Below the pieces are notes generated by a model. The model searched no databases. It was not told the origin of the DNA and was given only the letters and a program-made list of their open reading frames with translations. Of a DNA stretch of 64,000 bases, positions 5,851-49,185 are shown piece by piece (position 1 is the first letter of the stretch; every line of letters starts with the position of its first letter). The stretch is taken from assembly GCA_964187785.1 (NCBI GenBank), contig OZ076415.1, positions 1,736,001 to 1,800,000 of the forward strand, written 5' to 3'. A program made the translations under genes and the position numbers. The DNA is from Amphiscolops sp. MND2022. Taxonomy: Eukaryota.

Positions 5851-5863
5851 GAAGAGGGGGGAA
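5851..5863 (+). promoter_or_regulatory. Polypurine tract of element 1
   Basis: GAAGAGGGGGGAA immediately 5' of the 3' LTR. Confidence 0.85.
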
Positions 5864-6069
5864 TGTAGAGGTGAAAGTTACATAGTCTAGACAGACTTAA
5901 TTGAACATTCAAGTACCTGCCTATGAACTATATAGAACATCCCCATCATTTAGTTGTTGCCTTCGATGCTAAACGTATAGATACTAATACTCTGTTATTC
6001 TCTGCTCATGAGAACATTCTCTTCTTAATTTGAACTTCTTACTTCTATCTTTTCTGCGAGTCTACAACA
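5864..6069 (+). repeat. 3' LTR of element 1
   Basis: 203/206 identical to the 5' LTR. Confidence 0.95.
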
Positions 6070-23903: not shown

Positions 23904-23919
23904 TCTGGAATAGTTTTTA

Positions 23920-23937
23920 TGGCGACCACAGAGGGAT
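23920..23937 (+). promoter_or_regulatory. Primer-binding site (tRNA-Arg-like), 16 nt downstream of the LTR
   Basis: TGGCGACCACAGAGGGAT is the complement of ATCCCTCTGTGGTCG-CCA, resembling tRNA-Arg(TCG) 3' ends; TGGCGACC is the known start of tRNA-Arg PBSs of 412/mdg1-type elements. Confidence 0.75.
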
Positions 23938-26791: not shown

Positions 26792-29700
26792 ATGAACAGG
26801 AACCCTCCCAAAAGTTTCCATGCCACCAATCCATTTGGCAATATAGCGAGAGATGCAACCAGTTGGGAGACTCTTACTAACAGTTCTCCTGAACCTACCA
26901 TTACAGACATGTTTTTAGAATTCATGTCTGACTACATCCCCAGCACAGATCAAAACACGGAGATGACAACCGCAGCAGAACAGCTCGGTTCGTCGCAAGC
27001 TTCCCCTGACAGTACTCATCCAGTGGATAGTACAGGAAATACTACGCGAAGTAACGCGTGGCCCCCTCTAGAAGTCACCGACTATAGCCTAGAGGAATGG
27101 CCCAACTCAAATAAAAAAACCCAAAATGAAATAAGTGCTGCCGAAGAAACGGCATCACAAAATAGTAATCACTCAACTCCTGTGGCGGCCCCCCGCACTC
27201 CTTTGATTAAAAAGAACCCGCTGGGTTCCCACGCACCAGATATTAACACAAATCGAAACGATCAGAACCCCTTTCTAAGCGGATACGCACAAAAAACAGG
27301 GCCATCTACGGCACCTGCCCAGCCAAACGACGATCAACCAACACAAACGGAAAATAACCCATTGAGGTATGTCTTTAGAACACCTCCATCTAGAAACTTA
27401 GATCTTGCCCCAAGGCGAATGGACAGATTAGATCATACCCCTAATTCCAGAACCAGTATGGAAACGGCCCCTGACTCGACCGTTACGAAAGTCACGAAAG
27501 AGTCCCAAGCAGTAAGGGAAGAATTTCGAAACAGCCTGGCTCAGCTATCACAAGTACATTCACGACTGTCACGAGAAAATACTGAGCATGTAATAAGGGC
27601 TGATGTCATTATGAGAGACATGGATGAAATGAGGAAAGGCCTGCTAGAAATACAGGCCGAAGGGCGTCAAAGCCAAGGAAGACTGGAAGCATCCATGGCT
27701 TCTCTCAACGACTTAATAAAGCAGAGGGAAAGCATAGCAGACACGCGCATGGCCGAAATGTCCGCTGTGATGAAAGAGAGAGACCGTCAAGCAGACGAAC
27801 GGATGAAAATGATGTCAGATCTCATGCAGCGTAGAGAAACCGACGCAAACACCAGAATGATAGACTTGATGACCACGATGAAGGATTTGACGCTTGGAGT
27901 AAGAGCGATGGCAGCCCAAACTGCAACAACTCAAACAAAAGTAATGCCAGTGGCGTCGATGATCTCAAATTCAGACGGATACCCCTCCACTAGCGCAGCA
28001 CCAAACCCAACGCAAACTGCTTACCGCAAGGTGGCCCAGTCCAACGCCGAGCAAGCAAAGCCCTTGAAGCTGATACCACCCGCAACCTACAAAAGGGACC
28101 TGCCACGAACTAACAAAATGGCAAGAGTGATAACAGAGTCCCGCGACGTGGGCACGGACCCATTAACCAGCATCTCATTTGATCCGTTTGCTCGCGGTGC
28201 ATCAACAACGGGAGATTATTACTCACCCGCAAGCGGTATGACCACAAGGGAATCAAATTACCATACTGCTAGGACGAACGTCAGTGAAAATTCCCCCAAA
28301 CAAGCATACCTAGACTTGATCCCGCGGCCAGTAGCCACAAGTACACAGCGAAAATCCACAACGAAAAGAAACCTAGAAGAAAATAATGACGAAATCGAAC
28401 AGCCTTCAGAATCGCCAAAAGCAACGCCAGACACCCCAAGAACTAGCCAACGACAAGCATTGGCGGAGGCGATCTCAACTGCTATGTCCAAAGGCTTGGA
28501 ACCGTTACTCGCGGCGAAAGAATCGAAGAATAAACCCACAAAGTATCGAGGGACCAAAGACGGAAACGCCGACGGGTGGATGATGCTGATGAAGCGCCAC
28601 TTGGAGAAGGCACACACCAGAGCTACTCCTCTCGACAAGGCCTGGACCATAATAGAGTACCTGGAACATGAGGCCCGTGACTACATCACTAACAAATCCG
28701 AAGCGGAAAGAGACACCGATGAAAAAGTCTTTGCATTGCTGGCACGACGATTCGGAACTGGATCAAGCAAGATCCATATACAGCAGCAGTTCCGTACACG
28801 CAACCAAAGCAATGAAGAAGACTACATGCAATATCTCGATGCTCTCGAAGGCCTGCGCAGTCAAGGCTACCCCAACGAAGAGGTTACCGTTCGCAGATAT
28901 GAGATAATGCAAAAATTCATCGAGGGTGTACGCAACTTTGAACTCAAAAGGAACCTCGCCTTAATGTATGCGCAAGAACAGTATGTTGAAGCACCTCCAA
29001 CGGTAGAAGCGCTTCGCTTCACAGTCCAACAATACCTGCGCATGCGTGGTTCTAACCGCTCAGACAACTACCAAATGCCCCAGCCTCAACACCCTCAGCC
29101 TCAACAACCGAATCAACAACCGAAATTGCCTCAGGCAATTCCACCGCCGATACCGCAACCCCAACAAATTCCACCTCCACAACAACTAGCACCCTACCGA
29201 CCACAACCCCAACGAGCATGCTTCAATTGTGGGGACCCATCACACTTCGTAATCGATTGCCCACTCAAAGACCGTGCACGGAAACCGGTACAGCAACAAG
29301 TAAATTCTTGTCACACCAACCCCTCCGGTGGATGGACTTGTCCATCACAACCCCACGGAGTGAACAACGAAGTGTACCCAGCATCCCTACCAATCCAAGG
29401 AACTGTAGCTTTCTGTGTCAATTGTGGATGTGCCGAACATTCCGCATCGGAATGCATATCCCCAGAATATCCCAGACAAGAAGAACAAATAAGGGCAGCA
29501 TGGTATGCACCGCACACCAATCAATTCGAAGGCGCATCACAGGATGATCAAGTCAGAGTAATCTCGGTAGCAGAGGCCGGAGGCCCTTCCCGTCCTGTCG
29601 TCATTACTTGCGGCGAAAAACAAGTGCTTACCACATTGGAAGCACCCGCCCCCGACTGCACCGAGACACTCATCTCCATACACTTACTTCTCTCGGCTGA

Positions 29701-30883
29701 ACAAAAAACACGTCCTGAATTGACGTTAGCGCAATTAAAAGAGGAGCTATGCAGAAATTCCAAGTATACTATCGCAGCTCGACCGCTACCGCATTTCACC
29801 CGAGAGGACGAGACAAAATTGGCCCCAATACAGAAAGTAAAAACAATTTCCCCAGTACCGGTAGCCATTAATGTAGACGGGGTCGACATGAAATTTGACG
29901 CCATCGTAGTGGTAGAAGGTTACTTCCCTCAGGGATTATACTTAGGTCGCCAGGAGTTGAGATGTTATAACATTGGAGTACAAGACACTCAAGGGGAAGC
30001 TAGCATCGACGAACGAGCTTCTTTGGTAGTTGCCTTTGGCAGCAACCTCCAAGAGTCCATTCCCTTGTATGGTATGATTGACACGGGTTCTGGTGTTTCT
30101 ATCCTCTCCCTTGCAGCGTACCAAAAGATTGCTTCCGCCCATTCGTTGAGCCTCATGCCGTACGACATCCACTTATACGCAGCAAACGGCAAAACAATAA
30201 CGACGGTCGGCATGGCAGAAAACGTAAATTTCCAATTGGGCGGCCACTCATTGAAGACTAACTTCATCGTCATTGCTGATCACTTAGGGGCTGAAGACTT
30301 CCTGTTAGGACGCAACTTCTTACGCACCTATAATGTCCTCGTGGACTTGACCGCCATGAGGGTCACCATCAGGGACCCAAAAACTCCACGCCATTTCAAA
30401 CCAATCCATGAGGTTAGTGACCATGAACCTTCCTTAGTAGTGTCCACCGACAAAGTTGTACTAGGACCTTTCGAACGCAAGTTAGTTAGAGCACAAGTCA
30501 TCACTCAAGATCCCAATGAATATCGTTTCCGTAATGTAATGATACGCCCCAGCGGGGTGTACAACCGAAGTTCCTTTGTTTCAGAAAACACCCTAACTTC
30601 GGTGGGAGACGATGGCACGATATACATGGCCGTAAGAAACAAAACCGCCATTGAAAACTTACAAATTTATAGTCGAACTCTCCTAGGCAAGGCAGAGCCT
30701 ACCGTTTTTAAGTTTAGACCGATTCCGGTCGACCAAACCGATAGAACCTCTATGCCTCTGATAGAACAAGTTAATAATATTAATATTGTTGATCTTGACG
30801 ATACAAGCAGTGAATTCAGTTCTTTCGCACAAAACTTTTTATCATCTACTGAGTTGTCCGAAGAGGATATGTCAGAAAATTAA
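26792..30883 (+). CDS. Gag-protease part of element 3 polyprotein (first ATG 26792)
   Basis: Coiled-coil region; capsid-like segment (PTKYRGTKDGNADGW...RRFG...FRTRNQ); two CCHC knuckles (29219-29260, 29414-29455); aspartic protease IDTGS (D at 30080) and LLGRNFL; dUTPase-like beta segment before RT. The stop at 30881 is in frame with RT. Confidence 0.92.
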   Translation: MNRNPPKSFHATNPFGNIARDATSWETLTNSSPEPTITDMFLEFMSDYIPSTDQNTEMTTAAEQLGSSQASPDSTHPVDSTGNTTRSNAWPPLEVTDYSLEEWPNSNKKTQNEISAAEETASQNSNHSTPVAAPRTPLIKKNPLGSHAPDINTNRNDQNPFLSGYAQKTGPSTAPAQPNDDQPTQTENNPLRYVFRTPPSRNLDLAPRRMDRLDHTPNSRTSMETAPDSTVTKVTKESQAVREEFRNSLAQLSQVHSRLSRENTEHVIRADVIMRDMDEMRKGLLEIQAEGRQSQGRLEASMASLNDLIKQRESIADTRMAEMSAVMKERDRQADERMKMMSDLMQRRETDANTRMIDLMTTMKDLTLGVRAMAAQTATTQTKVMPVASMISNSDGYPSTSAAPNPTQTAYRKVAQSNAEQAKPLKLIPPATYKRDLPRTNKMARVITESRDVGTDPLTSISFDPFARGASTTGDYYSPASGMTTRESNYHTARTNVSENSPKQAYLDLIPRPVATSTQRKSTTKRNLEENNDEIEQPSESPKATPDTPRTSQRQALAEAISTAMSKGLEPLLAAKESKNKPTKYRGTKDGNADGWMMLMKRHLEKAHTRATPLDKAWTIIEYLEHEARDYITNKSEAERDTDEKVFALLARRFGTGSSKIHIQQQFRTRNQSNEEDYMQYLDALEGLRSQGYPNEEVTVRRYEIMQKFIEGVRNFELKRNLALMYAQEQYVEAPPTVEALRFTVQQYLRMRGSNRSDNYQMPQPQHPQPQQPNQQPKLPQAIPPPIPQPQQIPPPQQLAPYRPQPQRACFNCGDPSHFVIDCPLKDRARKPVQQQVNSCHTNPSGGWTCPSQPHGVNNEVYPASLPIQGTVAFCVNCGCAEHSASECISPEYPRQEEQIRAAWYAPHTNQFEGASQDDQVRVISVAEAGGPSRPVVITCGEKQVLTTLEAPAPDCTETLISIHLLLSAEQKTRPELTLAQLKEELCRNSKYTIAARPLPHFTREDETKLAPIQKVKTISPVPVAINVDGVDMKFDAIVVVEGYFPQGLYLGRQELRCYNIGVQDTQGEASIDERASLVVAFGSNLQESIPLYGMIDTGSGVSILSLAAYQKIASAHSLSLMPYDIHLYAANGKTITTVGMAENVNFQLGGHSLKTNFIVIADHLGAEDFLLGRNFLRTYNVLVDLTAMRVTIRDPKTPRHFKPIHEVSDHEPSLVVSTDKVVLGPFERKLVRAQVITQDPNEYRFRNVMIRPSGVYNRSSFVSENTLTSVGDDGTIYMAVRNKTAIENLQIYSRTLLGKAEPTVFKFRPIPVDQTDRTSMPLIEQVNNINIVDLDDTSSEFSSFAQNFLSSTELSEEDMSEN

Positions 30884-33800
30884 AAACGCGCGCAAACAGA
30901 CCCGAACCTATTGAAACCAATACCAGGCCCAGATCTGTCCTCCGTCCTTTCTTTTTGGGGGGAGGGAGCGAGAGATCAATTAGCAGAAGTTTTGAACGAG
31001 TACGACGACCTCTTTATGAAACATAAGGCCGACATAGGAAAGTGTACGATAGCAAAACATCGTATCGAATTGGAATCAGAAGCTATCCCCCACAGGGAGG
31101 GCGCAAGGCGAATGTCACCAGACAAAGCCGCCAAAGCCAACCAAGAAGTGAGGAACCTCTTAGCATTAGGCTTGATCCAACCTTCCTACTCGCCTTGGGC
31201 TAGTGGAATAGTAATGGTGAAGAAGAAGACAGGTGAACTTCGCTTCTGTTGCGACTTTAGACCGCTAAGTGACGTAACAGTAAAAGACGCCTTCCCCCTT
31301 CCCAGAATAGACGAAAGTCTGTCTAGGATAGGTAACGCAAAAATCTTCACAAGCATCGACATAGCATGGGCCTTTTGGCAAATACCACTGAAGAAACGCG
31401 ACAGAAGGAAAACAGCATTTGCCTGTGAATTGGGTTTGTTTGAATGGCGACGTATGCCCTTCGGGCTATGCAATGCATCCGCCACCTTCAAACGATCCAT
31501 CACAAGAGCACTTCAAAAAATCCAACAAAGACACGGAAGTGTCGTCATGGCCTACATCGACGACATAGTGATTGCAACTGAAACAATTGAAGACCACATA
31601 ATGAGGATTAAAGAAGTATTTGAATGTCTCAGGGAGGCAGGCTTTAAGATGCGAGCGGAAAAATGCGACTTCATGCGCACAGAAACCAAATATCTGGGAC
31701 GGATAGTATCAGCCGATGGAATCAAGCCCGACCCAGAAGCAGTGACCAAAATCCAAGAGTGGTTGCCACCAAGAAACAAAGAAGAACTCCAAAGCTTCTT
31801 AGGGTTTGCTAACTACTATCGCGATTTTGTCCCATTCCACGCCTCCAAAGTGCAACCCATGCAGGAATTGCTAAGGAAGAATCAACACTTCGGCTGGGAG
31901 GAAAGACATCAAGAAGCCTTCGACTCAGTGAAACAAGCCTTGTCCAATGCCACCACCTTGGCTGCACCAAACGAACAAGGACGGTTCGTGCTAGATACAG
32001 ACGCCAGCACGGTAGCTATTGCGGGTATTCTACATCAAGAACAAGAAAACAACGGCAAAACTATCCTGAGACCAATAGTTTACGGTAGTAAATCACTGAC
32101 CAAAACCCAACTGAACTACGGCGCCCCCAAACTGGAGATGTATGCAGTATTTTACTTTGTAGAGAAATTCCACTCATACCTAGCAGGTCGAGAGTTTACG
32201 CTTCGCGTAGACAACCAAGCTCTTTCATGGCTCAAAACCTACTCCATGGACCAAGCCATGATTGGCCGTTGGATCGCACGTCTAGACCAATATCATTTCA
32301 AAACAATTCACAGACCGCGTACGCAACACCGAAATGTCGATGGACTAAGCAAACGCACCAACGTTTGCATTAATCGCGAACAAATCCTTGAAAAGCTACC
32401 AGAGGTAAGCGAAGGATTTAACTTCATGTCACAAAAAGACTATGATGAACTCCCCACCGTCCCATACATCGACAAACGTGGTCACCTAATCCCAGACCAC
32501 CCTGAACTCCCCCAGAAGCTAAAGCTCGACTACCTCTGCTATACATCCTTCAGAAGAAGCGAAAGAACAATCAGCCTAACGAACCAACAGGAGATATCCC
32601 CTGGTATCCCGAAATTCAATGGGAAACCACACCGACTATGGAAGAGGATGAGCGACCCAATCGAATCTTGAGCATAACCACAAGAGTGCCTCCGGCACGA
32701 ATAGACACAACAAAGCCTGACCCGACCCTGGGGACTCTGCCTCTCGAATGTCAAAAACAAAGCTGACATTCTGAGAACCATTGAAACCGAATTGCACGAA
32801 CACCATCTAACCAAATATGGCCTCCGAGACCTACACATGGCGCAGAACAGAGACGTACACCTATTGGCACTAAAGAAACTCATGAGAAATGAGCCATTAG
32901 AAGAACCTATGTTCCCAGATGAAGTACAAGACTTCGCCAAAAGATACTACCATCAAAAGAAAGACCTGCTATTCTTGAACCCTGATGACATACTCTGTGT
33001 CAATTACGTTCCCCAGCAACGTGCCCTGCACGTACGCCCATGCATGATAATCATGCCGCAACTTTTCCAACACGAAATCCTGTACAGAGCACACGATGAA
33101 TCGGGACATCAAGGCGTAGGAAAAGTGCTGGCCAGAATACAAGAACGGCACACTTGGCCGGGAATCAAGAGGGACGTAGTAAATCACATCAAGCAATGCT
33201 TGACTTGCCAACAAGCAAAACACCCAGCGGGAAATCCTTGCTACCCCCTGCAGAGCATTAATAGTAGCAATTTCAACGACCTAGTTCAGTTCGATCATTT
33301 GAAACTCTGCAAGACCGACTCGGGCAACACCGGTCTTTTGGTAATAGTAGGTCATTTTACCAAATTTGCAGAAGCTGTCCCCTGCGCTCACGACGAATAT
33401 GACGCACAAACCACCGCAAAAATAATCCTGAACAAATGGTTTGCCAGGCATGGCACTCCTGCAAGGATGCAATCGGATAATGCAACTAACTTCACCGCTG
33501 AAATCGCCCAGGAATTAATGAAAGCCTCTCAAGTCACCAAAGTTACGTCTACCCCAGCACATCCCAGAGGAAATGGACTCGTGGAGCGCCAGAATCGAAC
33601 TTTGCTCACTCTCCTCCGAGTCTACACCTCACGCAGAATGCAAGACTGGGACGAACACATTGATGGAGTTCTGGGCGCATACAACTCCAGCAGACATGCC
33701 ACTACAGGGTTCTCACCCTACATGCTCCATCATGGCGCAGAGAAATCGATACCACTCTCGTTTATATACCCAGAGTTCGCAGCGCGAGGCTTTGATTCCA

Positions 33801-36401
33801 AAGAAGAGTTCGTTGAACACCTGTTGGCCAGACAACAAGAAATCCACGAATTAGTTCGAAGAAATACGCATCAAGCTCAACTTCGACAAAAACTAAAATT
33901 TGATCGTCACCTCAAAGCAAAAGCGCACGCCGTAGGCGACGCTGTCTGGGTATTTTGTCACATAATCCCCAAGGGCGGCACTCGCAAGCTTATACGCGCT
34001 TGGCGCGGACCCCACAAGGTCACCAACGTACTACAAGATGGACGTCTCTACGTGCTCGACACAGGTCAAAAAGTTCACTACGACAGACTAAAGAAACATG
34101 TACCAGCCCCCTGGGACTGGACCACTTACCAACCATTCGGACTAGATCAAAATGTAGCTATCATTGCTGATCCATACGTGGAAGACACTAACGAAGAAAT
34201 CACCTCCGACATCTCTAGAGACTCTCCTTTCTTCCAGAACAGCTCCCAGAGGCGTCGTTCGAAATGGAACCCACGAGACCGGTCCCCCCCGTACCATCCA
34301 AACACGAACACAAACTGCCCTAGGACAAGGGGTCCCACGCAGGAGATTCAGCCAATTCGACTACCCATCCGAATCAGACTCCGAAGCCGAAGCGGCAGAA
34401 CCTTCCCCCATGACCCCTCCCTCCCAAGTAGTATTCCCCGAAGTCGATGATCTAGAACCATTATTTTCCGACCAAGATGAAATACTGCCACCAACGCTCA
34501 TCGAAAGTTTAATACCATTACCTTCAGGAACTTCAGCTCCATTACTCTCCAACCCCTCGCTCACAGACACCTTGAGCAACTTTCCTTTGTTTAACCAACA
34601 AACAACGCACCCCAACGACCCGACTGATCCCATTCAGGCCACTGAGCCACTGGAAAACAATGACGGACCTGACCACCAAATCGCGAATCCAAATCCACCG
34701 CCTACAACCACCACAAGGGGAGGTCGACCTCGAGGTAGACCCCCTGCTCGCCGACACCAACTACCCACATCATCAAGCAAAACCACCACGTCTTCCCGGA
34801 AACCAACCACGCGGCACAGGAGAGGCCCAAGAACCAGGTTTTCTTCTAGAACCGCGCCCAGAACGCTTGACAGAGCCATGACTCTTCCTCATATTCCAGA
34901 GAGTTCATCCCCTGCTCAATCACCCCAACGTGATGATAATTCTAGACAAGCGCCACGCTACCAACTCCGAACCAACAGAGCACCGAAATATAAGTGCGGA
35001 ACCTGTGGTTCTCGTAACTGTAGTTGCGTCCAGCTAGTCACAACAGAAACCCCAAGACAGCGACTGGCCCGGGGAGCGGCGATTCCGGACTACGAGTTCC
35101 TCTTAGCACAAACAGCGAACCACCCACAACACAAAATCCTCAATGTACGAACAAAATTACATAATTCCAATATCACACCAACCGTCCGACATATCATTTT
35201 AACAATCGAAAAAACTTTTACCACTACCGAATCTGAATCCATACCACCCTTGGAATCCACCCTGAAGGAAATGCACCGATTCTCCCCCTCTGATTGCCCA
35301 ACCTATCGTTTCAAAGAGTGGACTTCTCATGAAAAAGGTGGACTTGAATTCACGCTAGCAGCAATCATTCCCCCTCTACCCCCCTCGTTTTCATTTGGTG
35401 AATTAGATGATACCTGCAGTAACCCCCTAATGATCCGCTGCATAACCGCAAACCAACTATGGCAGAAATATCACATCACTTCCCCACCAGGTGATATATA
35501 TCAACCATCCACTGGATGGTGGCTTCTAGTCACTTCCCTTGACGACTCATCATTAGTCTCACCAACTACATTATTGTTATGCCTAGAAAACCTACGCACC
35601 CTCGTAGAGTCGAACGACACCTTATGTTTTCATCTAGCTGACATTTACCGCGACACATTCTTGAGCCAACATTGGCTACAACTAATAGCCATTGTTTTCT
35701 GCAGACAAACGAAAATATGCATTCTCGACCGCTTAACGTACACGCTCGAAATACCTATTTCTCCCTTAGAAGCACTCTCCGTAATGCACAGATGGTCGTG
35801 CGTACATATGGGCAACCGCCCCCTACGTCGTACAATATGGAACGATCGCAAATCAATTTTCGCACACTTGATGTTGAACCCCCTGGAGAATCACGCAGAA
35901 GAAACTGGAAAATGGCTCATCTCACAACCAAAGATTCGCCCAAGCCACGTATCATGGATAACTTACTCCGACACGGACATCCTGCAAGCCTCTGGCACAT
36001 TAGTATTGTGCTGTCCTGCAGACCTCCAATCCCAATCAGCAACTATTCGATATATTATTCGCGAATATGGACAAGAAACTATTTTCCGTCTAAAACCTTC
36101 GGTTGGCACAGCCACTTGCTTACAGTACTCCCACACGGCACCCTGGTACAATCAAATCTTCCTCCTATACACCAGAGCCTCCACCAAATACCCACTACTA
36201 CATGAGACCCTACACGCATGCCTCAACCATCTTCGGCATCAACTCCACCAACACCAAATTTCCCGAGTCCACATACCCATCTATGACCCCGAACGATCGA
36301 TCAATCTCATTCCAACTTGGTACGCCACGCTCCGGGATCACTTCTTCGGTTCAAATCTTGAGATAGTACTCCACGATAGAGTCTACGTTTCTATTGCATA
36401 A
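30884..36401 (+). pseudogene. pol of element 3: RT-RNase H-integrase plus long C-terminal extension with tandem macrodomain-like folds; frameshifted
   Basis: RT (RFCCDFRPL, MPFGLCNA, YIDD 31553-31564); RNase H (LDTDAS, LRVDNQAL); integrase HDESGH..CLTC, QFDHL, QSDNA, GNGLVER, WRGPH; frameshifts at ~32513, ~32761, ~34225-34290; extension ORF 34164-36401. Confidence 0.92.
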
Positions 36402-36774
36402 ATTTCTTCCTTTGACATCCCCACAGATTGAGTTTTCATGATTTAAAGGGCCAGAGGCCCGCCCTCCTTTTTTTTGTTTTCTAAAATCCACCCCCATTTT
36501 TCTCGTTAACTTCCTTAATACGTACAAAATAGTCCGTAAAAGGTCTTCTTTTTTTAAACGACTGCACTCTATCTAACTACTAAACTTTTTAACACTCACT
36601 CTGTCATTTTAAGTTTTAACTTTTAGTTTTCCTTTCTTACCACTTCTAATATACCCTGTTCATGTGCCACTTGATTTTCAGTTTTGTCCTGTTGCTTCGC
36701 CCTTGCGCAGCCTCCCTATATCACACCATCACCCTCTTTCATCCATATCCACTTATTCCCTATCTGTGCTATCA

Positions 36775-39700
36775 ATGGATCCTTCATCGCGTAATCGCAT
36801 GCCTGCTCCCAATAGCCAACAGAATCCCCAATCTCGTATTCCTTCTTCTAACACTCTCCAATCAATGGGCGAGGTTAATGGCCGAGTCGACCAACTAGCC
36901 TTAGTCCAGCAAGCTTTACAAGATGGGGCCACCCCCACCATGATCACTGGCTTTGCCATGATTGTAGCGCAGATGCAAGCGCAAGCTACGCACCCAGAGG
37001 TCTTATTGACCATTACAAGTAGCATTGGACCGCTTGAGCGTTCCGCTACCTTCCGCGATGGTGTTTGCCATGGTTACGATTTAACTCATAACCTGATCGA
37101 CCATCGCTCCCATATGCTCTACGGAGAACCTGACGGGCCTCCTATGGACCAAGAACGATCGTTCAGAATTTCTCCCCCAACAATACAGCCAATCTTCCAC
37201 CCAACACAGCCTGCCCCATCTCAAACTATGATACAGCTTCCACCCCCCGAGACTACAACCTTCAACTGCACTTTGCCTCAAATGCTACCTCCAATCCTCA
37301 CGCCACCTATGCCTCTGGCATCTGTGGGTATCAACCCTCCCACTCTCTCTACTCCTGCCTTTATGCTTCCTTCCGCCTTTCAGGGGGGAGGGGTGCAAGG
37401 AGTGCAAGCAAATCCCATCGAATGCAATCAAGTGACACAAGAAGAAGCCAACAACACTCGCCCAACGAGAAAAGTCACATTTCAAAAAGAAGAGCAAAAG
37501 AAAGAAAGAAAGGATAGAAATGCTCCAATGGATCTCCGCGATAAGTTGAATGCAACGAAGAGAGCTAGAGAGCAAGACGGGCAAACCAACTCAAACAGAG
37601 GAACTCCAGCCCAATCCCCTAGCCAACCAGAAGCCAGGAGACAAAAAGTCACGAGAGAGTTACTAACTGCGGCAGAAATGAAACAGTTGGATATTACAGC
37701 GAGAGACGCACTGCGTCTTCAACGCGAAATACCAAATATGCCTGACGAAGAAAATCCCCCCAAGACAGAAGTTTGCGAGCGCTAACAGCAGAGGGGACCA
37801 AACCACTCAGCGAACTATAGAGAAGGCCAACATTGGAGTAGTTTACAACCGACCAGTTAAGCCACCAATATTCGCCAATGATGGAGGAGTCCCACCATGG
37901 TTCGAGCGTCTCAGGAGAGAATTGCAGAACAGCAACTCCACGTACTTACAACCGCTCCAAGCAACCAACGATCGACTCGCTCGCCAGAGACCCGGCAGAT
38001 TCGGAGAGAACCACCTACAGTCAAAAAACTACGCGAGGAACCCCATCACCCTACTACCAATGGGAAAAGATTTGCTACAGAAAATTAGGATTGCTCTCTT
38101 CGTTGACTCAACCATCAAGTCATCGTATAATGGCAATAACACCTTGATGGACGTTAGACTAATGAATATGCCTTGCACAACGCTTAATGAAATGGCAGAG
38201 GTAACAGACAAAATATTCACGCCAGCGGGGACAGAAACGATACCTCTTCCACCAGTCTTGGTGTATTCGAATGTGATTGATCACCTCGCCCTGCGAGGAT
38301 CATTGCGACATTTCGATACACAAAGCAATCGATTTACCGAAGGCTTCGTCACCGACGAAGTCACGGCCTACATAGAAACAATGTCCTACTTTGTTACTAC
38401 ATTGAAAAACAAAAAACCGAACACCGCAACAGTCTTCGTCTCACCCCCCGGGTACATTTATATCCCAAGAGCACTGCAACAATTCTTATATTTAGTGCTT
38501 GAAGCAGCTTATGCAAGAGACCTCCACTTCTACATTGTTGCTCCAAATTTAAGAGTTAGCGTAACCACGTGGCGCCCCTGCGAGGCGTCGTATCCAGCCT
38601 TTTTGGCAGAGGTGTCCAAAGCCGTCCAGGCATTCACAGGATATCGAGGCAATTCACAATTGATTGTCGACGAAGCAACCGCGTACGACTACGGAATGCA
38701 GATGTCTATCCGATCCCTAGACGAAAACGGTGTACGCAAAGTGTTCGACCCGAACGAGAACGAGAGAAAACACCTAATCGATAACCTCTGGTTTGAAAGA
38801 AGGGATGAGTCCACTCTCGACGAAAAAACACATGAACCAAAATTCCACAAAGAGCTCCTAACTCTTTTTAAAGAAACTGAAAAAGTTAAAACAGAACGGA
38901 CCAACACCACCGTATTTCCCATGGCGGCTATATCTACTGATGCTAAACTTGATATGGCGTCTCTCACTTTGACGCTCTTGACAGTAATGACAAGAGGCTT
39001 GGCAAGACAAAATGAAGTAGAACCAAGCCATACCTATCAAACTTGGCACAAAGCCCTACATGAAACCTTAAATCAAGTCGCCCTGCGGCTAGAAATCCCA
39101 TTTCCTGTGTTTCTTTATAACATTTCCCCCTTTTGGCTCCCGAGTTTTGTTCAAGCCGAATTTAATCTTGATGATCAACAGACGCGGTTATACCAGGAGG
39201 CAATGCAAAAAGCCACCATTAGTGAAATTCTAGCTTACTTAATGGCGGTCGGAATGCACACAGTGTATAAAGGACCCTCTGGGATTCTGCAAAAACTAAT
39301 CTTCGACAAGGGACATCTACCACTCTTCAGCTACTTGGTATTCTCCCAAAGCCAAAAGAACTGGTTACAAGCAATCTTGAACGCCTTGGACCCAGCGGGT
39401 CCTCTACGATTAAAAAGACAACTGGAACTAAACATCGAAGCTATTCTAGCATGGATTTACTCAACATGGGTGAATGTCGCGGGTATCATGCATCCTCTCG
39501 ATGAGAACCCAGCCATTAACAGAGAACCAAACCAGCTCCCTGGCTTCCTGTTTCCTTCACAAATGGCAACCCTTATGCTGGTAGAAACAGAGGACGTGAT
39601 GCCCCTAATTGCCCCAATAGTCTGGCCAATCTTTGGCGCGGTCATGGCTCTAAGGTACCCCACTCAGGTCTTGCGCATGGCAGTGAATACCCCCACCCTT

Positions 39701-40816
39701 TCCATACTGCATTTCGTGATGGCAGATGAGACCCTAGCGGAACCGACTTACCGCAAAGTGGTAGCCAATTTCAGCTCGATGCGACCGCCCATGGCTTATA
39801 CAATTATCAAGGACAAAAAACAGGTTGAGCACAATTTTACTTCTATCATAAAAGCACGTGCACGCTGCGCCCTCCCGATGCCAATGGAATTTCACCCAAT
39901 TGCATGGCTACATATCCCCCTAAATCCAGCAACAGGAGCAGCACATTCCCTTACGGATTGAAACTCAGAGATAATCCTGAGGATTCTAGCCACTGCAAGC
40001 CAAAGATTGGGCGGAAGGCGACGAGGTGAAGAACCCAGCGGGTTGAGATATCCCTATGTGTGTGATGCCTCAAGGATGTACTGCGACCGAACCAACCCTC
40101 GCGCGCACCCATCGGATATACTACAGGCAACAACGTGCTGGTCGAAACCAGACTTAGTAGATTTTGCAGTCCACCAGACTTCTCAGCACATAAAAGCCAA
40201 GACGCCCTCAGTAGCAAAAGAGCCAAACAGAAAGACTCTACCAATCAATACAGAAGTCCCAAATAATCCGCGCGCTGCGCTAGAGATATTCTTGAACCTA
40301 CACAGTAGACAAAAGGAAAAAGGGGATTCTGTTGGAGAAGAGTATGCACGCGGAATCCAGACCTTCAAAAGTTTGTTCATTCAACATGGCTACCCAGAAC
40401 TTGCCAACAAACTACCTGAATTCCCACAGGGAAACATCATCGAACAAAGCAGTGCAACGAATACAGCTGCCCCTGGCAGCTCACAGCAAGAGACACCCAG
40501 TGAATTGCCCGCGGAAAGAATGGAAACTCGAATGGAAGAAGACCAAAAGAATCAATCCATCGTCATTGAGACTCCTGATGAACCTATGACAGATGATAAC
40601 TTCACTCTATCCGACGGTGCAACCCCTACTCAAGACGAACCCGAGACAGGAATATCTCAAATGGATGCTGCTGATATCGAATCTGAGTTGAACAACCTAC
40701 TCACCATCGACGATTCGATACAATATCCTCCCTTGGTGGCGGAATCTTCAATAAACCAAGATTCAGCAATGACATCCTCCGTTTCGGATTCACAACAAAG
40801 CCAAAACGATGAGTAA
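36775..40816 (+). pseudogene. Accessory ORF of element 3 (reconstructed ~1,346 aa) with SGNH/GDSL-like domain
   Basis: ORF 36664-37785 (ATG 36775) joins ORF 37922-39961 (frame open from 37667) by removing one C from CCCCCC 37756-37761; ORF 40007-40816 is in the same frame after a single TGA at 39959; SGNH-like blocks at 38090-38636. Confidence 0.7.
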
Positions 40817-41371
40817 AAGAATAACAATCGACGCTGAGCCGTTCAATCTGAAAACGAAAACTTGCCTTTGAATAGACAGGACTTTACCCCAATGGTCTTA
40901 GACCATTGCATTTTTGTTGGTGCTAAGACACTGAATTGCAAAGTAATACCTATTATCTACTTAAATTTTAGTTCATCTGCATCATATGGGTGGGCCCTGA
41001 GCCAGTGCCCACCCTCTCTAGTTCGGTAATTAACCATTGTTACCAAGACTTGAATTTTGTTACCTGGAGAAGTGCTAGAGCACCTCCTAGAAAAAAGATT
41101 TTAATCTGAGTTTGCGAAATTGCTTACAAATTTTGAGATTGTCAATCATAAATTTTAGTTTTGTCCAGTGAATATTTTTAGTTCTCGCTAAGACCAATTG
41201 ATACTAATATAAGGAAATAACAAAAGAAAAATTTGGAGATTGAAAGAAAGCAAGTAAGGAAAAAACAAAACCTTCCTAGGATGTTCAAAAAAAAGAGAAA
41301 AAATCTCAGCATTGCTATCACCCTCTGGGTATTAGCATCCTTTCGTTTGCCGAGGACGACAAACTACGGCC

Positions 41372-41380
41372 CGGGGAGGA
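41372..41380 (+). promoter_or_regulatory. Polypurine tract of element 3
   Basis: (C)GGGGAGGA immediately before TGTAAC of the 3' LTR. Confidence 0.75.
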
Positions 41381-42096
41381 TGTAACGTCTGCCACCGGCA
41401 TGACCAAAATTTCGATGAAAAATTCGAAATGTGCGATGTCAAAATAGAAGAAAAAAGATGGCCGACCTGACAGGTACAAAAAGTGTGAAAAAAAAAGAAA
41501 ACACGCGGAGAGCGAGCAAAAAAAGAGAACACGTGCCGGAGAGACAGCACAAAAAGATGAAAGAGCAAGAAGATCGAGGAATGTCAGAATGGCGATTATC
41601 GGAAAGTTGTGTCATCTCTTACGAAATTCAACAATTTCAGATGAAGATTGCCAGAGGGATATTCCGAATTATGGCTTGAAACTGTAAAGTAATTGGGGTT
41701 TGTCCCCGTTTTTCCTTATTATCTTCATAATTCCCTTCGATATTTGAAAGATGTTTGACCTTCTAGGTCATTTTATATCTTATTTCCCAAATATTATGTT
41801 TTCCAGCTAAATCACTGTTTTGACCTCGGAAGCATGTAGGAACTCGCAGGAGTACATTAGAAACCTTAGGAATGTTTTTACAGGCTTGTGGGGCGTGTCC
41901 GGACTTTGAGAGTGCCGGCGCGTCGCTTCGGAGCTCTAACTAGAGAAGCCTCCTTAGACGTTAGAAAAGTCCCCCTTGGAGACCATTTTGGGATCAAAAA
42001 CTAGTGTCTAGGTATGTAGTAAGACAACGGTCTCCTGTTTAAGCATCCTAGGCATTGTCCCTCTTCCTAGATGTGCGTCGCTAGCCGGTCGTTACA
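41381..42096 (+). repeat. 3' LTR of element 3 (716 bp)
   Basis: About 99.4% identical to the 5' LTR. Confidence 0.96.
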
Positions 42097-43298
42097 TATT
42101 TTATCAGCAAAGAGCTTGTTATGAGTTTTATCGCAATTTTAATGCAAAATAACTTCAGTCGCGTAATAAACTGCATATTATTGTCATGTTTAGACCCTAT
42201 TTGAGACGCGGTGATCACATCATCTGAGCAGTTGACGAAACAAAGTGTAAATACAAAGTGTGATCGTGTCGGTAATGAAATGGGATTTAATTTTAAATTG
42301 TGCAACAAATTCAACCGTGACCTTATACTAAATTTTCTACATTTTAGTTTTAAAATTTTCCTGCATGCAGGCGTGCAGAATGTAAAACTTACCAGCAGTC
42401 TCAACTATGGCAACCAAGAGTGATCCGATTCTTCAGACAACAATCAGACGTCTCTCTTTCAGTCATTTCGTTGACACTTTTGACGCGTGAAAGTTCATTT
42501 TCTTCGAAAAAATAGTTGTCAAAGTGAATGATTTACAGTCTGAATTGAAATGTTCCGAATTGTTTTAGAACATTTGTTGACAAATTTTGAGAACTCAAAA
42601 GTTTTCATGTGTTCCGTTTTTTATGGTTCACTTAGTTTGAAATAGTCAAATGAAAGATTCAAAAAGGCAAAATTCACAGATGAAACGATTATATTCTAGA
42701 ACAGTAGATATATTTTTTTCTGTCACTGAAGCCAAAAAGGTTTTTTCACGTTGCCACTGTGAATTTTCAGCGGTGCAACCCAAATTGACGGAACAAAGTC
42801 TTCTTAGCAATGTTTTCAATTTCAGTATTTTTTCCAGCAACGAAATCTGGGGAAACTGAAATTTGATGACTTTGTGACCAAGTTGAAACTACAATTGTTT
42901 GAAAAAATACATGCAAAAGCTTCTCATCTGAACAATTATTTCGAGTTTCAACCAAATGAAGAAGACATAGAATCGTTTGGCGACAGTTGTAAAAAATCTT
43001 TATTTCGAATTAAATCGAAATTTTGGGCATTTGAGTTTGAAGAATGTATTTCAATTGATGTAATTAGATGGTAATTAAGCGAAACGAGCTTCAATCTTGA
43101 CTGATAATGAACATGGTCAAGAGCTGATGAAAAATTCGAGAGGAGATATTATGTCATGATAGCCACAAAAATCAATTTGACGGAAGAAGACCAAAACACG
43201 CACAAAAGTTAACAGAAAACTGCAAAAAAGTCACAAGTGATACTTTCAAAAAAAAAGAGGACACCTTTGATCAAAAAACTGTGTCAACGGTACAAAAC

Positions 43299-43490
43299 TG
43301 AAGTAACGTGGAGAAACAAGAGGATAAATACAGTGAATTTAAAAGCTAGAGCGTAAGTATCAAAACAGATCAGTATCGTATATATTTTCAGTGTGTCCAT
43401 ATACGCATTAACGTTACATGACATCTAAAAGTGGCAGGTAGTTCAATGTTCACTTTAATTGGATTGTTCATTTTGCCATTTCATGCCACA
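43299..43490 (-). repeat. 3' LTR of element 2 (192 bp)
   Basis: Direct repeat of 48993-49185; shares block TTAA..TGAACATT.AA.TACCTGCC with element 1 LTRs. Confidence 0.93.
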
Positions 43491-43621
43491 TTCCCTTCTT
43501 CCGGGATCTCCTAAGGGAGCTATTTTTGTTGTGGGTTGTCCTTCTTGATTCGTGGAAATGGGGTGAATGGGAATCGACCTGGAGTGGTGAAAGTGTAGGC
43601 GTCTCCTAAACGTAAAAGGTT

Positions 43622-46600
43622 TTAAAATATTCTACCCCGCCTAATTTCACTACTCTTCGTGCTGATTTTATCCTTTCGGATCTACGCGGTTCAGATTCTG
43701 ATTTTATTTGATTTTTTTTTCAAAGTAAGAATTTTGTTCCGCCCTAATTTTACCTGTTGTCCCTTCTCCTGGTTCCGCGGTTTCATTTCCAGTATCGGGC
43801 GTTGTTTGGCGGTGTATCGGTGTACCTTGAACGTCCGGTTGCGGTGGGTTAGTGGCCCGTCCGGTGCTACATCCGACCTGTGTTGTGGGTGCCGGTGTCT
43901 GCTCCCGCAATCTTTCGATTTCTCGTCCGATATCGGCTCTGATATCTGTCTCTTCCGGATCTTCTTCTTCTCGGTCGGAGTCGGGGTTGTCTTCTCCCGA
44001 GCTGGGGTCGGCGGTGTTAGATTCTCTGCTGGATGAGTTGTATGCGATTATCCGCTTGTATTTCTTCTTTGTGGGCATTGTCGAGAAAGTGCGACTGGTG
44101 CTGGGTCCTTCCTCGGCGTCGTTGTTATTGTTGTCTAAATTTGCCGCTGCTGAATTTTCCGCACCTTTTGCACCGGGTGATGGCCTTCTTCGGTTTGTCT
44201 GGTTTCCTTGGGGTCTGAAATTTTAAAGGTTTAGAAGCGAGTTTTTTGTGTATTGTCCTACCGTCAGAGGTAGAGTCAGTGTGATCGGTCTCTTTTATTG
44301 CTGTTAGAATTTTATTTGTTTTAAAACCACAATTCATTGAGTTGGCTTTATTCTCGTTTTCTAAGAATTGATATTTTTTGAATTTCCGGCTTACCGAACG
44401 GTTCCTTTTTCGTGCATCGTTGAGCACCAGGTAGTCGGCCATTTCTCCTTCAGCGTCGTTGATGGTGACTACTTGTAGCTCTGTTGGTTGTGCTAAAAAT
44501 ATAGTTAGTTAGTGTTTTCTTCCAATTGGATAGCAGACATTCGGATATACCGAATATGTTGGTAAGTGCAGTGCGTGGTTTTCTGCCTAAGTGCATTCGG
44601 AAAAACGTCATATTTAATCTACTGTGTGGAGTCTGTCTGATTGTTTTGATGGCTAATTGAATGCTGTCTTCGGAATTTCAATCCATCGGCCATGTTCGCT
44701 CTAGTTAATGACTTAATTGTCCGTATCATACGCTCCACTAGGCCGGTACCGGTGTGTAGGTTCGGAGTGCATCTTATGCGTTTTATGTTTTCATCCGTAC
44801 AGAATTTTTTTGAAATCGCTGCTTTTGAAGCAGCTGCCGTTATCAGTTCTAATACACTGTGGTGACCCGTTGTTTGTGAAATATTCGGTTAAAAATTTTG
44901 AAACGGTTCGGGTATCCGCACTTTTACATACTTGTGCGGTGGGCCACTTGCTAAAACGGTCTACCGCTACTAAAATGTAAACGTCACCGCGTGACTTTGA
45001 TTTTATTGGACCGGCGAAATCCAATTGAATCTCCTGATTCGGTTCGGTTAAAATTTCTAAATTATTTTTCTCCGTCGACGGAAATTGTGTAATGATGTTC
45101 TTACCTGCGGCTCTACAACTCGGGCATGTCTCTGCTTTTTCGTGTACATCTCGGTTCAGGCCAGGCCACCAGAAGGCTTCGGCGAGTTGTTCCATTTTAT
45201 TTTTGGAGACATGGCCGTGGTGCAGCATAGCAATGATGGTCGACCGCATATTTTCCGGGATTACTAATCTGTCATTATAAAATAGCAATCCGAATCTGGT
45301 TGACAGATGTAGACGGTGGGGGCGATAGGGATAGAAGATACTTTCGGGCTGTTGTTGTTCGATTGCGGCAATTGTGTTTAAGATTTTGACATCGCGTGCT
45401 GTCTCATCCACCAATAGAGACAGGTCCAATGCAAAGTCCTTTTCTGCTTTCTTTAGTACATCTGCGGTTTTCTCGTTTTGTTCTGGTTCTAGCGTGTTCA
45501 GTTTGGCCGTCTGCTTCAGTCTAATGAGATTGACCGTTTCGTGTTTCTTGAACCGTCTCAATGCGTTGGTGGGGCATTTATCTTGCTTTGTCTGGCTTTC
45601 TCCATCGGACTGATTATTGTTTATCCAAGATTCGTTGTTGTTCTGCTGGAATTCTTGTAGAGTGTATTCAGTGTTTCACAATAGTGAAAAGAACGATTGT
45701 AAATTTCAATGTTTAATTCAGCTATTCGTTTTCGTCCCGCTTGATTGGGCCTATACTTTTGAATTCTCTCGCTTTCCTTGCCCTTCCCCACTATTCGAGT
45801 CTTGTCCGGTTTCAGGATATGGTTTCTTTCGATCCACAGACGCTTCGTCTCTGGTGAATGGCCTCTCTTTTTGAATATAAAATCCATATCGATTCCGTTG
45901 ACCTTGTCCATTTTATTGCTTGGCGACGGTAAAGTTTTGAATGAGTTTGGAATGCTGCTGTTTAGTAACGGTGAGGCTTTAAGCAAATGAGTATTTCGAT
46001 TTCGTTCGCATATGTTAGAGTCGCTTTGTGATTGGTTGAATTTTTCTGTCGTGTCGTTTCGTTCGGTGAATCGTTTTATGCTGCCGCGTTTTTGGTTATA
46101 TTCTAATAGGCCGTATATTTGATTCACAACGAACTCTTCTTCGGCTTCCGCTTCAGTTAATCCGTCCGCTTTGTTTTCTAGTTCGGCGATTTCGGTTGGT
46201 ATGATCGGATGACGGCTCAAATAGTCCGTCAGCGGAATGATTTTACCGGCCGTGTATTGAACATTGACGTCGAAATGGCTCAATCTATCCAGCCAACGTG
46301 TCAATCGCGCGCTGTATTGCTTATGAGCACGGTTCTTTTTCAACAGCGGTTGTAACGCTTGGTGATCTGTTAGCAAATTTACTCTTTTTCCATACACAAA
46401 ATACCTGAAGTATTCTAAATCCCACAGAGCCCCTTGTAGTTCTAATTCATTGATTGCATATTTCTTTTCACAATCAGTTAAAAATCTACTTGCGAATGCT
46501 ACGGGTCTAAAGGTTTCACCTTCTTTCTGCCATAGTGTTGCGCCTAGTCCGGTATTACACGCATCTGTGGTGATGTAGTTTTCCTTCTGTGGGCCGAAGT

Positions 46601-48957
46601 GCGCTAGGCATGGGGCCTCTGTGATCTCTTTCTTCAGCTTTTCAAAGTCTTCGTCTATCTCGGGTGTCCATTCCCATTTGGTGTCCTTTCTCAAGAGTTT
46701 CCTCATTTCATCGGTTTTCTTCGATAGATTTTTGATGAATTTCGATAAGGTGCTGTATTGATCCCAGGAATGACTTCAGTTCTTTGACGTTTTTCGGGGC
46801 TTCTAGTTTAGTTATTGCTTCCGTTTTGTCCTTGATTGGTTTAACGCCATTTTGGTTGATATAGTAGCCGAGCCAGGTTAATTCCTTTTTGAATAGTTCT
46901 GTTTTCTTTTCGCTTGCTCGATAACCGGCGTCTTGCAATTCTCGCAGTTCTTTTTCATGGTCTTCAATATCGCCGTTAGTCACACAAATGATGTCGTCTA
47001 ACCAGACCGGTGTTTTGAATTCCAACACGATGTCGATATGTTCTTGGAATACCGTAGGGTTGTCGGATAAGCCGTAAAAACCTTTCTTGAACCGGTAATG
47101 TCGGTGAATTCTCCCCAAATGATGGAGAATACGCAGTGTCTTGCGGCTTCGTTCGACAATTTGGCTTGCCCGTATGCGTAATCCAGGTGGATTTTGGACA
47201 TCCAAATATCCCCATTTCCTTTAGTGATTTTGGCGGAAATTTTGCTGATCAATTCTTCCATGGTCGGCATCGCAGCTTTTCTTTTTATACATGCGTCGTT
47301 CAGTTTTCGTGAATCCAGAGCTATTTTGACTGATTTGTCCTTTTTGATGGTGATAACTGCGGGTGATACGAAGCAATTTTCAGTTGTTTTGTCAGCTTTT
47401 TCCAGATGTCCTTTGTCTATTAGTTTTTCTAACTCTCCACGGACAATTTTTTGGAAATAAATAGGGACCGGCCGTCCCTTCTGTTGGATTGGCTTGACGT
47501 CTTTTTTCAACTGAATATCGATGATAAGATCCTTGATAGTGTGGTTGTTTTTGAATAGATCTTCGTATTCGTTGATGATTCTTTTTCTTCTTTCATCTTC
47601 TGTCACATGGCGGATAACATTTGTTTTCTTGCTGCCTTGTAATCCAATTTCCAGTTTATCAAGCCAATCTAAGCCCAATAATGGTTGAGTGTTTTTGTTT
47701 TCTGTTATTAAGATTGGTAGTATCTCTCTGCTTTTTTCTGTTTTCACCTCAACCATGGCTTCCCCCTTGAATTTTATTGGATTCTTGTTTACGTCCACAA
47801 ATGTTCTTGTTGTTTTCTTCAGTTCAGTCAAATCAATAACTGGCGGGATAATCGTCACGGGAGAGCCGGTATCAATAATGAATTCTATTGGCTGGCCGTG
47901 GACCAATAGGATAGTTTTGTAGAAGTCGACTCGGTTAATACCGTTTACGGATTGAATGTGGTCCACTTCCGGCCATGGTTCGGTATTACTGTCCGATGAA
48001 GCCGCTTCGGCTATCCGGCTCACGGTCTTGGATTTGCAAACTTTGGCAAAATGTCCCATCTTTTTGCAGTTGTTGCATTGTGCTCTCCGTGCCGGGCAAA
48101 TATGTTCCATGGACCAGTTTGGCTTCCCGCAGAAGCGGCAGGTTTTGTTCGATAATTTCCTTTTATCGTTGAATTGTGTCCTCCACTTCCGTGATTGGTT
48201 CGTATGTCCAATTAGTTCGGTGCTTGTTGAGCTACTTGTGGATTCTTTTTTGGCTTTTTTGGTTTTGGGTTTTTTTATCGCCGTACTTTCTGTTGTAATT
48301 GTCAAATTCTATGGTCTCCAATACCAATTGTATTTTCAGAGGGCCCTTTATAAATTTGTCCCGGGCTCGTTTGTCTTTAATTGTGGCTGCAAATTTGTAC
48401 GTGATGATTTCTTCTGCCGTTATATTCCCAAAGTCACACTTTCTCTCGATGTCCACGAGCCTCTTCCAATATTCATCTAAAGTTTCGCTTTCATCTTGCT
48501 TCATATTGAAAAATTGGGCCCTGCTGTGGAAGACGTTTCTTACCGGGAGAATTGTTTTTTGATTAATGTCAGTAGTTCCGGCAATTTGACATCTTTTATT
48601 TCTCGGCCCCATTGTCCTCTCACGATTTCATGTTTGGCTTTTGGGCCTAGAGCCCAGATAACGTCACTTTTTATGTGGTATACCGTGTGGGGGTCCATGT
48701 ATTCTACTCCTTCGTCGGTAATTTCGTCCAAATTTCGGTTGTAGGTCAGAAGGATATATTCCGAAATTTGTTCCCACCACATCTTGGGGTTGATTTTTCT
48801 CTATCGGGTCGGTTTCTCTATCAGATAGGATAGGAATCTCGTATTTGCTTTTTTCCGCTCTTTCTGACATCGTTTGGTTGTTGATTGTCCGTGTTGACTG
48901 TTCCGAAGACATCGGTCTGTCCTCCGTGGAGTTGAGGTCAGTATTATTATTATCCAT
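43622..48957 (-). pseudogene. gag-pol of element 2, multiple frameshifts and stops
   Basis: Mag-type double Cys/His array CRFCG..HICPA...CNNCKKMGHFAKVC (48036-48140); protease IDTGSP (47865-47873); RT WLDD (46993-47004); RNase H TTDACN; integrase HHGH..CPSC, LDFAGP, TDNG, GLVER; ends KLGGVEYF*. Confidence 0.92.
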
Positions 48958-48992
48958 TGTTTTTCTTTCTGTTCAAGATGCTGACTGCGCCA

Positions 48993-49185
48993 TGAAGTAA
49001 CGTGGAGAAACAAGAGTATAAATACAGTGAATTTAAAAGCTAGAGCGTAAGTATCAAAACAGATCAGTATCGTATCTATTTTCAGTGTGTCCATATACGC
49101 ATTAACGTTACATGACATCATGAAAGTGGCAGGTAGTTCAATGTTCACTTTAATTGGATTGTTCATTTTGCCATTTCATGCCACA
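48993..49185 (-). repeat. 5' LTR of element 2 (193 bp)
   Basis: TG...CA termini, PBS adjacent. Confidence 0.93.

Follow-up and report, generated by a model that had tools for sequence, protein, structure and literature searches.

SGNH domains have been gained repeatedly by long interspersed nuclear elements (LINEs), Penelope-like elements and long terminal repeat (LTR) elements, and their purpose there is an open question. The closest described case comes from bdelloid rotifers, in which Rodriguez, Kenefick and Arkhipova reported a GDSL/SGNH third open reading frame (ORF3) in Vesta LTR retrotransposons. Vesta ORF3 is reported to be about 1.3 kb long, to have its catalytic residues intact, to contain no transmembrane segment or coiled coil and to show no significant departure from neutrality; a membrane role was proposed, not shown (PMC5408684; the membrane idea is repeated in PMC6431247). 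The same source describes catalytically dead GDSL derivatives in Athena-L Penelope-like elements (PMC5408684). Here we describe a distinct form of such an ORF3, carried by an 18.9-kb Ty3/gypsy LTR element (23,187-42,096) in a 64,000-nucleotide stretch of Amphiscolops sp. MND2022 DNA (GCA_964187785.1, contig OZ076415.1, positions 1,736,001 to 1,800,000 of the forward strand), hereafter the window. Its core is a predicted member of the SGNH/GDSL fold superfamily, likely catalytically dead, and it is shared by a large lineage of sister elements. An earlier interpretation of this DNA from its letters alone, the sequence-only reading, had proposed such a gene and overlooked the Vesta precedent.

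Two further proteins frame the question of what such a domain might do. The esterase of ORF1p from the zebrafish element ZfL2-1 binds anionic phospholipids and liposomes, and its active-site mutants still bind liposomes; the membrane binding was attributed to surface charge, and the esterase did not bind oligo(A) (PMC3905857). The OSK domain of Drosophila Oskar binds RNA via an SGNH fold that lacks the catalytic triad (PMC5785220). Among other Ty3/gypsy elements, additional ORFs in sense orientation are found between pol and the 3' LTR (PMC7264820).

ORF3 as a conserved third gene

With gag and pol counted first, ORF3 is the third gene of its element, although only the second of its long ORFs; it stands downstream of pol and ahead of the 3' LTR (36775-40816; plus strand, as are all features below unless stated otherwise). 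The window copy is broken into three pieces (36775-37785, 37682-39961 and 39962-40816), which the sequence-only reading had taken to be one gene. Sister copies bear this out: a single ATG-started ORF of 1,306-1,401 aa covers all three pieces in 28 of 28 copies, which were picked for long open frames. At 98.6% identity to an unbroken sister, the window copy carries both of the lesions that had been proposed for repair, a frameshift near 37,756 and an in-frame stop at 39,959-39,961, and in addition a 108-nt in-frame deletion at 37,483 that was missed. The single giant ORF that had been foreseen is real, although its usual length in the window's subfamily is ~1,380 aa (a gene of ~4.1 kb) and not ~1,350 aa.

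The gene is widespread in its own genome and beyond. Searching the 1.07-Gb genome with the SGNH-like part gave at least 151 matches, with 150 of 2,895 candidates scored, and pol sequence lies upstream on the same strand at 63 of 64 ORF3 loci, so that the third gene is present in sister elements as anticipated. By identity to the window's family A, further ORF3 families stand at 84% (B), 61% (C) and about 50% (D). A family E, reached in the same genome via one distant profile match, has its open frames, 1,361-1,433 codons long, immediately downstream of pol. Unbroken ORF3, with lengths of 1,358-1,433 codons, is thereby found in five families (A-E), at identities down to 30%. A profile search of 1.84 billion representatives returned 439 matches at E 0.001, mostly fragments and some 26-35% identical; three distant homologues, for which no match was found in the Amphiscolops genome at E 1e-60 (78-137 candidates scored each), probably come from other assemblies. 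Rearranged forms occur as well: one ORF3 copy (L046/L070, G000:C5 near 11.06 Mb) bears a tandem internal duplication of most of ORF3, and a database protein, P0369, fuses a partial integrase with the central portion of an ORF3 homologue, probably through an internal deletion.

Ratios of nonsynonymous to synonymous substitution (dN/dS) were obtained from simple Nei-Gojobori counts, in which synonymous sites are saturated between families. They are well under 1. Between subfamilies the ratio is 0.08-0.10 for the whole of ORF3, 0.04-0.09 for the SGNH part, 0.05-0.09 for the helical part and 0.06-0.19 for the N-terminal domain; the acidic tail (0.12-0.55) and likewise the linker are looser than the SGNH and helical parts. 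For the SGNH domain alone, three independent subfamily pairs gave 0.062, 0.080 and 0.048, and the integrase gave 0.007 and 0.018 in two of these pairs. Ratios of 0.20-0.29 within family A are expected, because post-insertion mutations are counted in. On these substitution counts, ORF3 is under purifying selection and is selectively maintained.

The SGNH-fold prediction and its active site

An AlphaFold2 model of the ORF3 core, built from an alignment of 90 natural sequences, has a mean predicted local distance difference test score (pLDDT) of 71, with values mostly of 80-98 across the first 290 residues and under 50 at model residues 527-638. In an exhaustive VIA-align search with this model, 37 of 48,161 chains reached Z 8 or more, and a second VIA-align search agrees. 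The top match is the GDSL lipase 3p94 (Z 11.0, root-mean-square deviation (rmsd) 3.9, 181 residues aligned); the platelet-activating factor (PAF) acetylhydrolase 1bwp (Z 10.8, rmsd 3.7, 181 aligned) and sialate and carbohydrate esterases are also among the matches, and GDSL/esterase entries dominate the top 50. The OSK domain (5a4a) closes that set at rank 50 (Z 7.5, rmsd 4.8, 161 aligned). Top matches that do not name a family in their titles, namely a crocagin enzyme and phage tail proteins, we take to be SGNH-type. SGNH hydrolase matches fall on model residues 69-258, and from pLDDT, VIA-align and conservation counts the SGNH-fold domain is placed at ~38081-38650. Foldseek also returned SGNH proteins, with probabilities up to 1.0, in both the PDB and viral libraries.

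The fold proposed by the sequence-only reading is thus recovered by modelling, and sequence profiles missed it. Pfam gave nothing for the ORF3 pieces or for full homologues, and an Atlas search gave ORF3 only leads under 0.9, including GDSL clusters at 0.81 and 0.79. Weak PDB matches to a response regulator, syncytin-2, designer pentatricopeptide repeat proteins and cyclin E were dismissed as chance.

The motifs quoted in the sequence-only reading lie where it had placed them, with the Ser codon at 38108, the Asn at 38270, the Arg at 38573 and a hydrophobic stretch at 39596-39652. Their order as SGNH blocks is beyond chance and accords with the SGNH hydrolases returned by the fold search, with the block III Asn matched provisionally. 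At block I, D480 is found in 31 of 35 rows and S481 in 33 of 35, giving an xDS motif in which the Gly before Asp is replaced by Val or Ile. The block II Gly occurs in at most one row of the alignment at positions 502-505 (register inferred), where P502-C/L-S/T stands instead. At block III, N535 (39/43 rows) directly follows a strand and forms N535-x-x-D538 with D538 (37/43); on the model, the canonical Asn position may correspond to the hydrophobic residue 537 instead of N535. The inferred catalytic His position of block V is occupied by R636 in 40 of 43 rows and by His in one, and three positions before it Asp lies outside the six commonest residues of the alignment. In the model, R636-P637 immediately precedes the last helix, the place at which SGNH enzymes carry His-Pro. 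This conserved Ser/Asp/Arg pattern includes homologues at 24-33% identity.

Arg in the inferred His position makes ORF3 a likely pseudo-enzyme, in keeping with the loss of the block V His that had been called from the letters. Judged by alignment and model together, the catalytic machinery is likely gone and the pocket conserved. The alternative is an active hydrolase or acyltransferase with a rebuilt site, in which Ser481 would work with His539 or Arg636. Conservation of Ser481, Asp480, Asn535, Asp538 and His539 (the last in 34 of 43 rows) is what such an enzyme would lead one to expect, and a Ser kept at 24% identity calls for explanation. However, block II has no Gly, block V has neither His nor a fixed Asp, and the two homologues farthest removed have Asp or Tyr where His539 stands; we consider an active enzyme quite unlikely.

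The SGNH-fold domain occupies only part of the protein. A domain of ~90 aa near the N terminus (36883-37149) is conserved in the alignment of families A, C, D and E and has no family match. The low-complexity linker holds a basic cluster, KRAR (37558-37569), and a basic cluster at aa 272-312 is present in six of six family representatives; by resemblance it may be a nuclear signal. The segment just before the SGNH domain has a net charge of +5 to +7 in families A-D. A conserved, mostly helical C-terminal region (38950-40430), for which PDB and Pfam sequence searches gave no match, includes a single hydrophobic helix with an invariant PIFG (39596-39652), whose hydropathy is 1.8-2.3 in eight of ten homologues and 1.4 in two. 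The fast-evolving tail (40433-40813) is clearly acidic in families A and C (net charge -25/-24), as the sequence-only reading described it, but less so in D (-16) and E (-7).

Upstream, a splice-acceptor-like site consisting of a T-tract and CAG (36675-36681) lies 93 nt before the ORF3 ATG, and 45 of 46 loci of families A-D have such a site, at a distance of 93 or 105 nt from the ATG. The spacer upstream of it is only 54-65% alike between families, and between acceptor and ATG the proportion of nonsynonymous differences (pN) about equals that of synonymous ones (pS). Taken together, a conserved acceptor-like site in a diverged spacer and pN about equal to pS suggest a spliced subgenomic RNA starting at this ATG, so that ORF3 would be expressed in the way that env genes are. 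An in-frame N-terminal extension from the acceptor was judged unlikely, given the same equality of pN and pS, by which this stretch is probably not translated. A scan for splice donors in six families yielded five weak shared candidates, none convincing.

These expression signals bear on two further explanations. In the first, ORF3 would be an OSK-like dead SGNH protein that exports, localises or protects genomic RNA in the manner of CERV of Cer1, a protein translated from spliced mRNA and required for the export of RNA (PMC10309623). The acceptor-like site, the basic cluster and the basic segment before the domain in A-D would all suit an RNA-binding pseudo-hydrolase, as would the appearance of OSK among the fold matches, since OSK binds RNA through this fold without catalytic residues. 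Yet OSK ranks below lipases and esterases, the basic segment has a charge of only +1/-2 in family E, the ZfL2-1 esterase offers no precedent in its behaviour toward oligo(A), and sister elements without ORF3, described below, would have to depend on supply in trans. An RNA-binding role is possible on this evidence, if unlikely.

In the second, ORF3 would substitute for an envelope: acting at the surface or in fusion, its product would pass particles from cell to cell. Its env position, the acceptor-like site and the one hydrophobic helix are compatible with this; derivatives without ORF3 recall the loss of env in insect retroviruses (10.1101/2023.08.03.551782), and envelope-free transfer occurs (10.1101/2025.03.14.642691). 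But no N-terminal signal peptide was found (over the first 36 aa, the best 12-residue hydropathy is no higher than 0.27 in six copies from families A, C, D and E, although an upstream exon may exist), and no furin site is shared, with two RxK/RR sites in A, one in B and none in C. Cys residues number only 8-9 in ~1,380 aa (families A, C and D), the one confident domain matches SGNH hydrolases in the PDB and viral libraries, and the exchange of sequence among families with and without ORF3 is suggestive of shared cells, not separate niches. An envelope substitute is therefore very unlikely; on the missing signal peptide the sequence-only reading was right, and its view that ORF3 is no envelope is supported.

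Carrier element and ORF3-less sisters

A search for reverse transcriptase (RT) led to sister elements that do without the gene. Seventeen of 20 loci taken from it, chosen partly for distinct gag-pol lengths and thus no guide to copy number, show no trace of ORF3. These sisters are ~15 kb long, their gag-pol is mostly open (about 3,000-3,100 aa), and their pol is 87-90% identical to that of family D1. Their LTR pairs are 100% identical in 9 of 14 cases and at least 99.4% identical in all 14. An unrelated segment of ~1.2 kb stands in place of ORF3, its small ORFs showing no conserved frame among the sisters, and the acceptor-like site is retained in 9 of the 17. Near-identical LTRs and open gag-pol without ORF3 mean that these elements inserted recently without carrying the gene, which is therefore not needed in cis; the recently inserted ORF3-less sisters stand against an essential role in cis.

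In an integrase tree of 25 rows, from which L107 was dropped, the ORF3-less copies fall within family D (96/99, with the bootstrap not settled), and a gag tree leaves them unresolved (53%). Loss of ORF3 is the simpler history, because the most distant family, E, has it. One ORF3-less element is a mosaic (L122+L093 compared with L128+L071 and L129+L081): its early leader is 96-98% like family D2, its RT-integrase 93-96% like D1, and its gag only 64-88% like D1 or D2. Template switching could produce such a structure if two RNAs were packaged together, and so could gene conversion. The patchwork suggests that ORF3-bearing and ORF3-less kinds share cells, so supply of ORF3 in trans is conceivable.

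The window element itself shows the Ty3/gypsy layout, with the order gag-protease-RT-RNase H-integrase between TG...CA LTRs. The 5' LTR (23187-23903, 717 nt; repeat families D1/D13) aligns to the 3' LTR (41381-42096) with 713 matches, three mismatches and one gap (713/716 positions). Read from the sequence, a primer-binding-site-like motif lies 16 nt 3' of the LTR (23920-23936), and a similar motif has an equal position in families A, C, D and E and in ORF3-less copies. The untranslated leader is 2.9 kb long (23904-26791) and contains, near 25,454, a short palindromic motif that is invariant across six families. A capsid-like gag with a CCHC knuckle is followed by the protease (26792-30883, stop-terminated in the window copy), and then by RT, RNase H and integrase (30884-34450; Pfam RVT_1, RT_RNaseH, Integrase_H2C2 and rve), which here are split over two frames. 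In a comparison to solved RTs, made without a reference tree, the best relative of the RT is Ty3 (E 4e-75; next solved RT 2e-49). Unbroken sisters encode gag-pol as a single ORF of ~3,200 aa. Although the LTRs of the window copy differ at only 3 of 716 positions, its gag-pol and its ORF3 are interrupted by several stops and frameshifts; the template may have been defective beforehand, or base runs may have been misassembled.

A frame of 747 codons 3' of the integrase (34158-36401) is no separate gene but the C-terminal part of Pol, being in one frame with integrase in unbroken sisters. Of this extension of ~750 aa past the integrase, the final 400 are conserved across all families (dN/dS 0.09-0.12). 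Pfam and PDB searches gave no match for it, and its Atlas lead (0.89) is to a cluster in which 14% of members carry PF01661; we liken it, presumptively, to one or two macro domains, and by this sequence resemblance a macro-like domain is possible. An extra conserved region in Pol with a weak macro-domain lead is one of the observations that would suit a third explanation, in which ORF3, as a scaffold of several domains, would dampen silencing or innate defence in trans, to the benefit of free-riding ORF3-less sisters. A gene dispensable in cis yet conserved across families would fit such an antagonist, and so would large helical and N-terminal domains without a family match. Nevertheless, ORF3 resembles no known suppressor, and selection is purifying, not diversifying, in every segment tested. 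We regard a defence antagonist as unlikely.

One expected trait of the lineage is missing. LTR elements typically make target-site duplications of 4-6 bp, a range that is not strictly defining for Ty3/gypsy. The window copy has a 3-bp duplication, TAT, at 23184-23186 and 42097-42099, and duplications of 3 bp were found in 11 of 14, 15 of 18 and 2 of 2 cases in three sets from this lineage, with none of 4 bp and one of 5 bp. No description of a 3-bp duplication for such elements was found in the literature covered. Tools that expect 4-6 bp, presumably the default, may miss these elements.

The window also holds two smaller related LTR elements in opposite orientation (~43299-49119, minus strand, and 897-6070), with RT, RNase H and integrase-like ORFs on the minus strand; their terminal repeats are 98-99% alike and their internal parts 71-82% alike.

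Binding, catalysis and known systems

The explanation that we favour, tentatively and somewhat short of thinking it probable, is that ORF3 encodes an intracellular dead-SGNH protein that binds anionic lipid or membrane and helps to route element RNA or particles. The SGNH domain would no longer hydrolyse and would act as an intracellular binding module; a pocket with Ser481 and with Arg for the catalytic His would suit an anionic ligand, for example a phospholipid head group. Through the conserved hydrophobic helix the protein would settle more readily on an internal membrane, from which it would help to route element RNA or particles and so raise transmission without being required for copying. 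ORF3-less sisters would do without the gene, or be supplied with its product in trans by relatives that have ORF3 and share their cells. Anionic lipid or membrane is favoured as the target because the ZfL2-1 esterase, the closest precedent in function, binds both anionic phospholipids and liposomes and because the hydrophobic helix is conserved.

Several points weigh against this explanation. The ascription of His-to-Arg depends on block registers taken from motif and secondary-structure position, not from residue-level superposition; no Foldseek match reached E 0.001 or better, and PDB sequence and profile searches found no SGNH protein for ORF3. A shared fold, moreover, shows no function. 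The net charge of the SGNH domain is near neutral (-3 to +3), which matters because membrane binding by ZfL2-1 was attributed to surface charge, and the conserved basic cluster fits a nuclear protein equally well. The hydrophobic helix is proline-rich, contains Glu in two distant homologues and has a pLDDT under 50 in the model; it may be a buried core helix. On the other side, the sequence-only reading had named three outcomes that would have spoken against an SGNH third gene, namely no SGNH fold, no purifying selection and absence of the ORF from sisters; instead the fold is predicted, selection is purifying, and sisters carry the ORF. That reading is in this way partly borne out, the lipid or membrane binding, particle trafficking and cell-to-cell transfer that it suggested being proposals.

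A bolder version joins these strands, and we find it decidedly unlikely: in a lineage of giant Ty3/gypsy elements whose integration has an unusual 3-bp stagger, a captured lipase would have become a pseudo-enzyme anchored in the membrane, and with its help particles or RNA would pass from cell to cell, or enter the germline, with no envelope involved; ORF3-less sisters would be non-infectious or free-riding derivatives. If true, ORF3-bearing and ORF3-less sisters would form a natural with/without pair. Even apart from it, one genome holds active sisters of both kinds, so that data on expression and localisation would be enough to address the question of purpose.

No description of this lineage was found in the literature covered, with supplements, Repbase/Dfam and most subscription papers outside that coverage, and a term search of PMC13524379 gave no mention of SGNH/GDSL. 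Of the systems that have been described, the PAF acetylhydrolase Ib alpha subunits and bacterial GDSL lipases (1bwp, 3p94, 4ppy) match best, over model residues 17-255 including an N-terminal extension, at Z 10.8-11.0; unlike ORF3 they are catalytically active, and at 10-13% sequence identity there is no evidence of direct descent. The ZfL2-1 esterase is likewise an SGNH domain borne by a retroelement (4c1b is in the Foldseek list at rank 23, E 0.39), but it belongs to a LINE protein in Gag position and is active, with a strongly conserved active site. OSK resembles ORF3 in using for binding an SGNH fold without a catalytic triad, features established for OSK and predicted for ORF3; it differs in being a host germ-plasm protein with a weaker match, and the Ser is kept in ORF3. 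The additional ORFs of other Ty3/gypsy elements share with it the sense orientation and, reportedly, the want of envelope features; most have no assigned fold, whereas ORF3 has an assignable domain and natural sisters without the ORF.

Vesta remains the nearest parallel, with an SGNH-fold third ORF after pol in the env position of an LTR element. ORF3 is set apart from it, on Vesta's published description, by a 4.1-kb multidomain gene, a His that is likely Arg, a hydrophobic helix and strong purifying selection. By model and alignment it belongs to the fold superfamily and, on the register used here, lacks the block II Gly and the block V Asp-His pair; it is very unlikely to be an envelope. 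As an old, abundant and strongly selected case in which catalysis is likely lost and the pocket kept, it suggests that what made the domain useful was binding, not hydrolysis. SGNH genes in the env position were thus already known; what is new here is the size of this one, its domain content, the likely loss of catalysis, how deeply it is conserved and the fact that some active sisters lack it.

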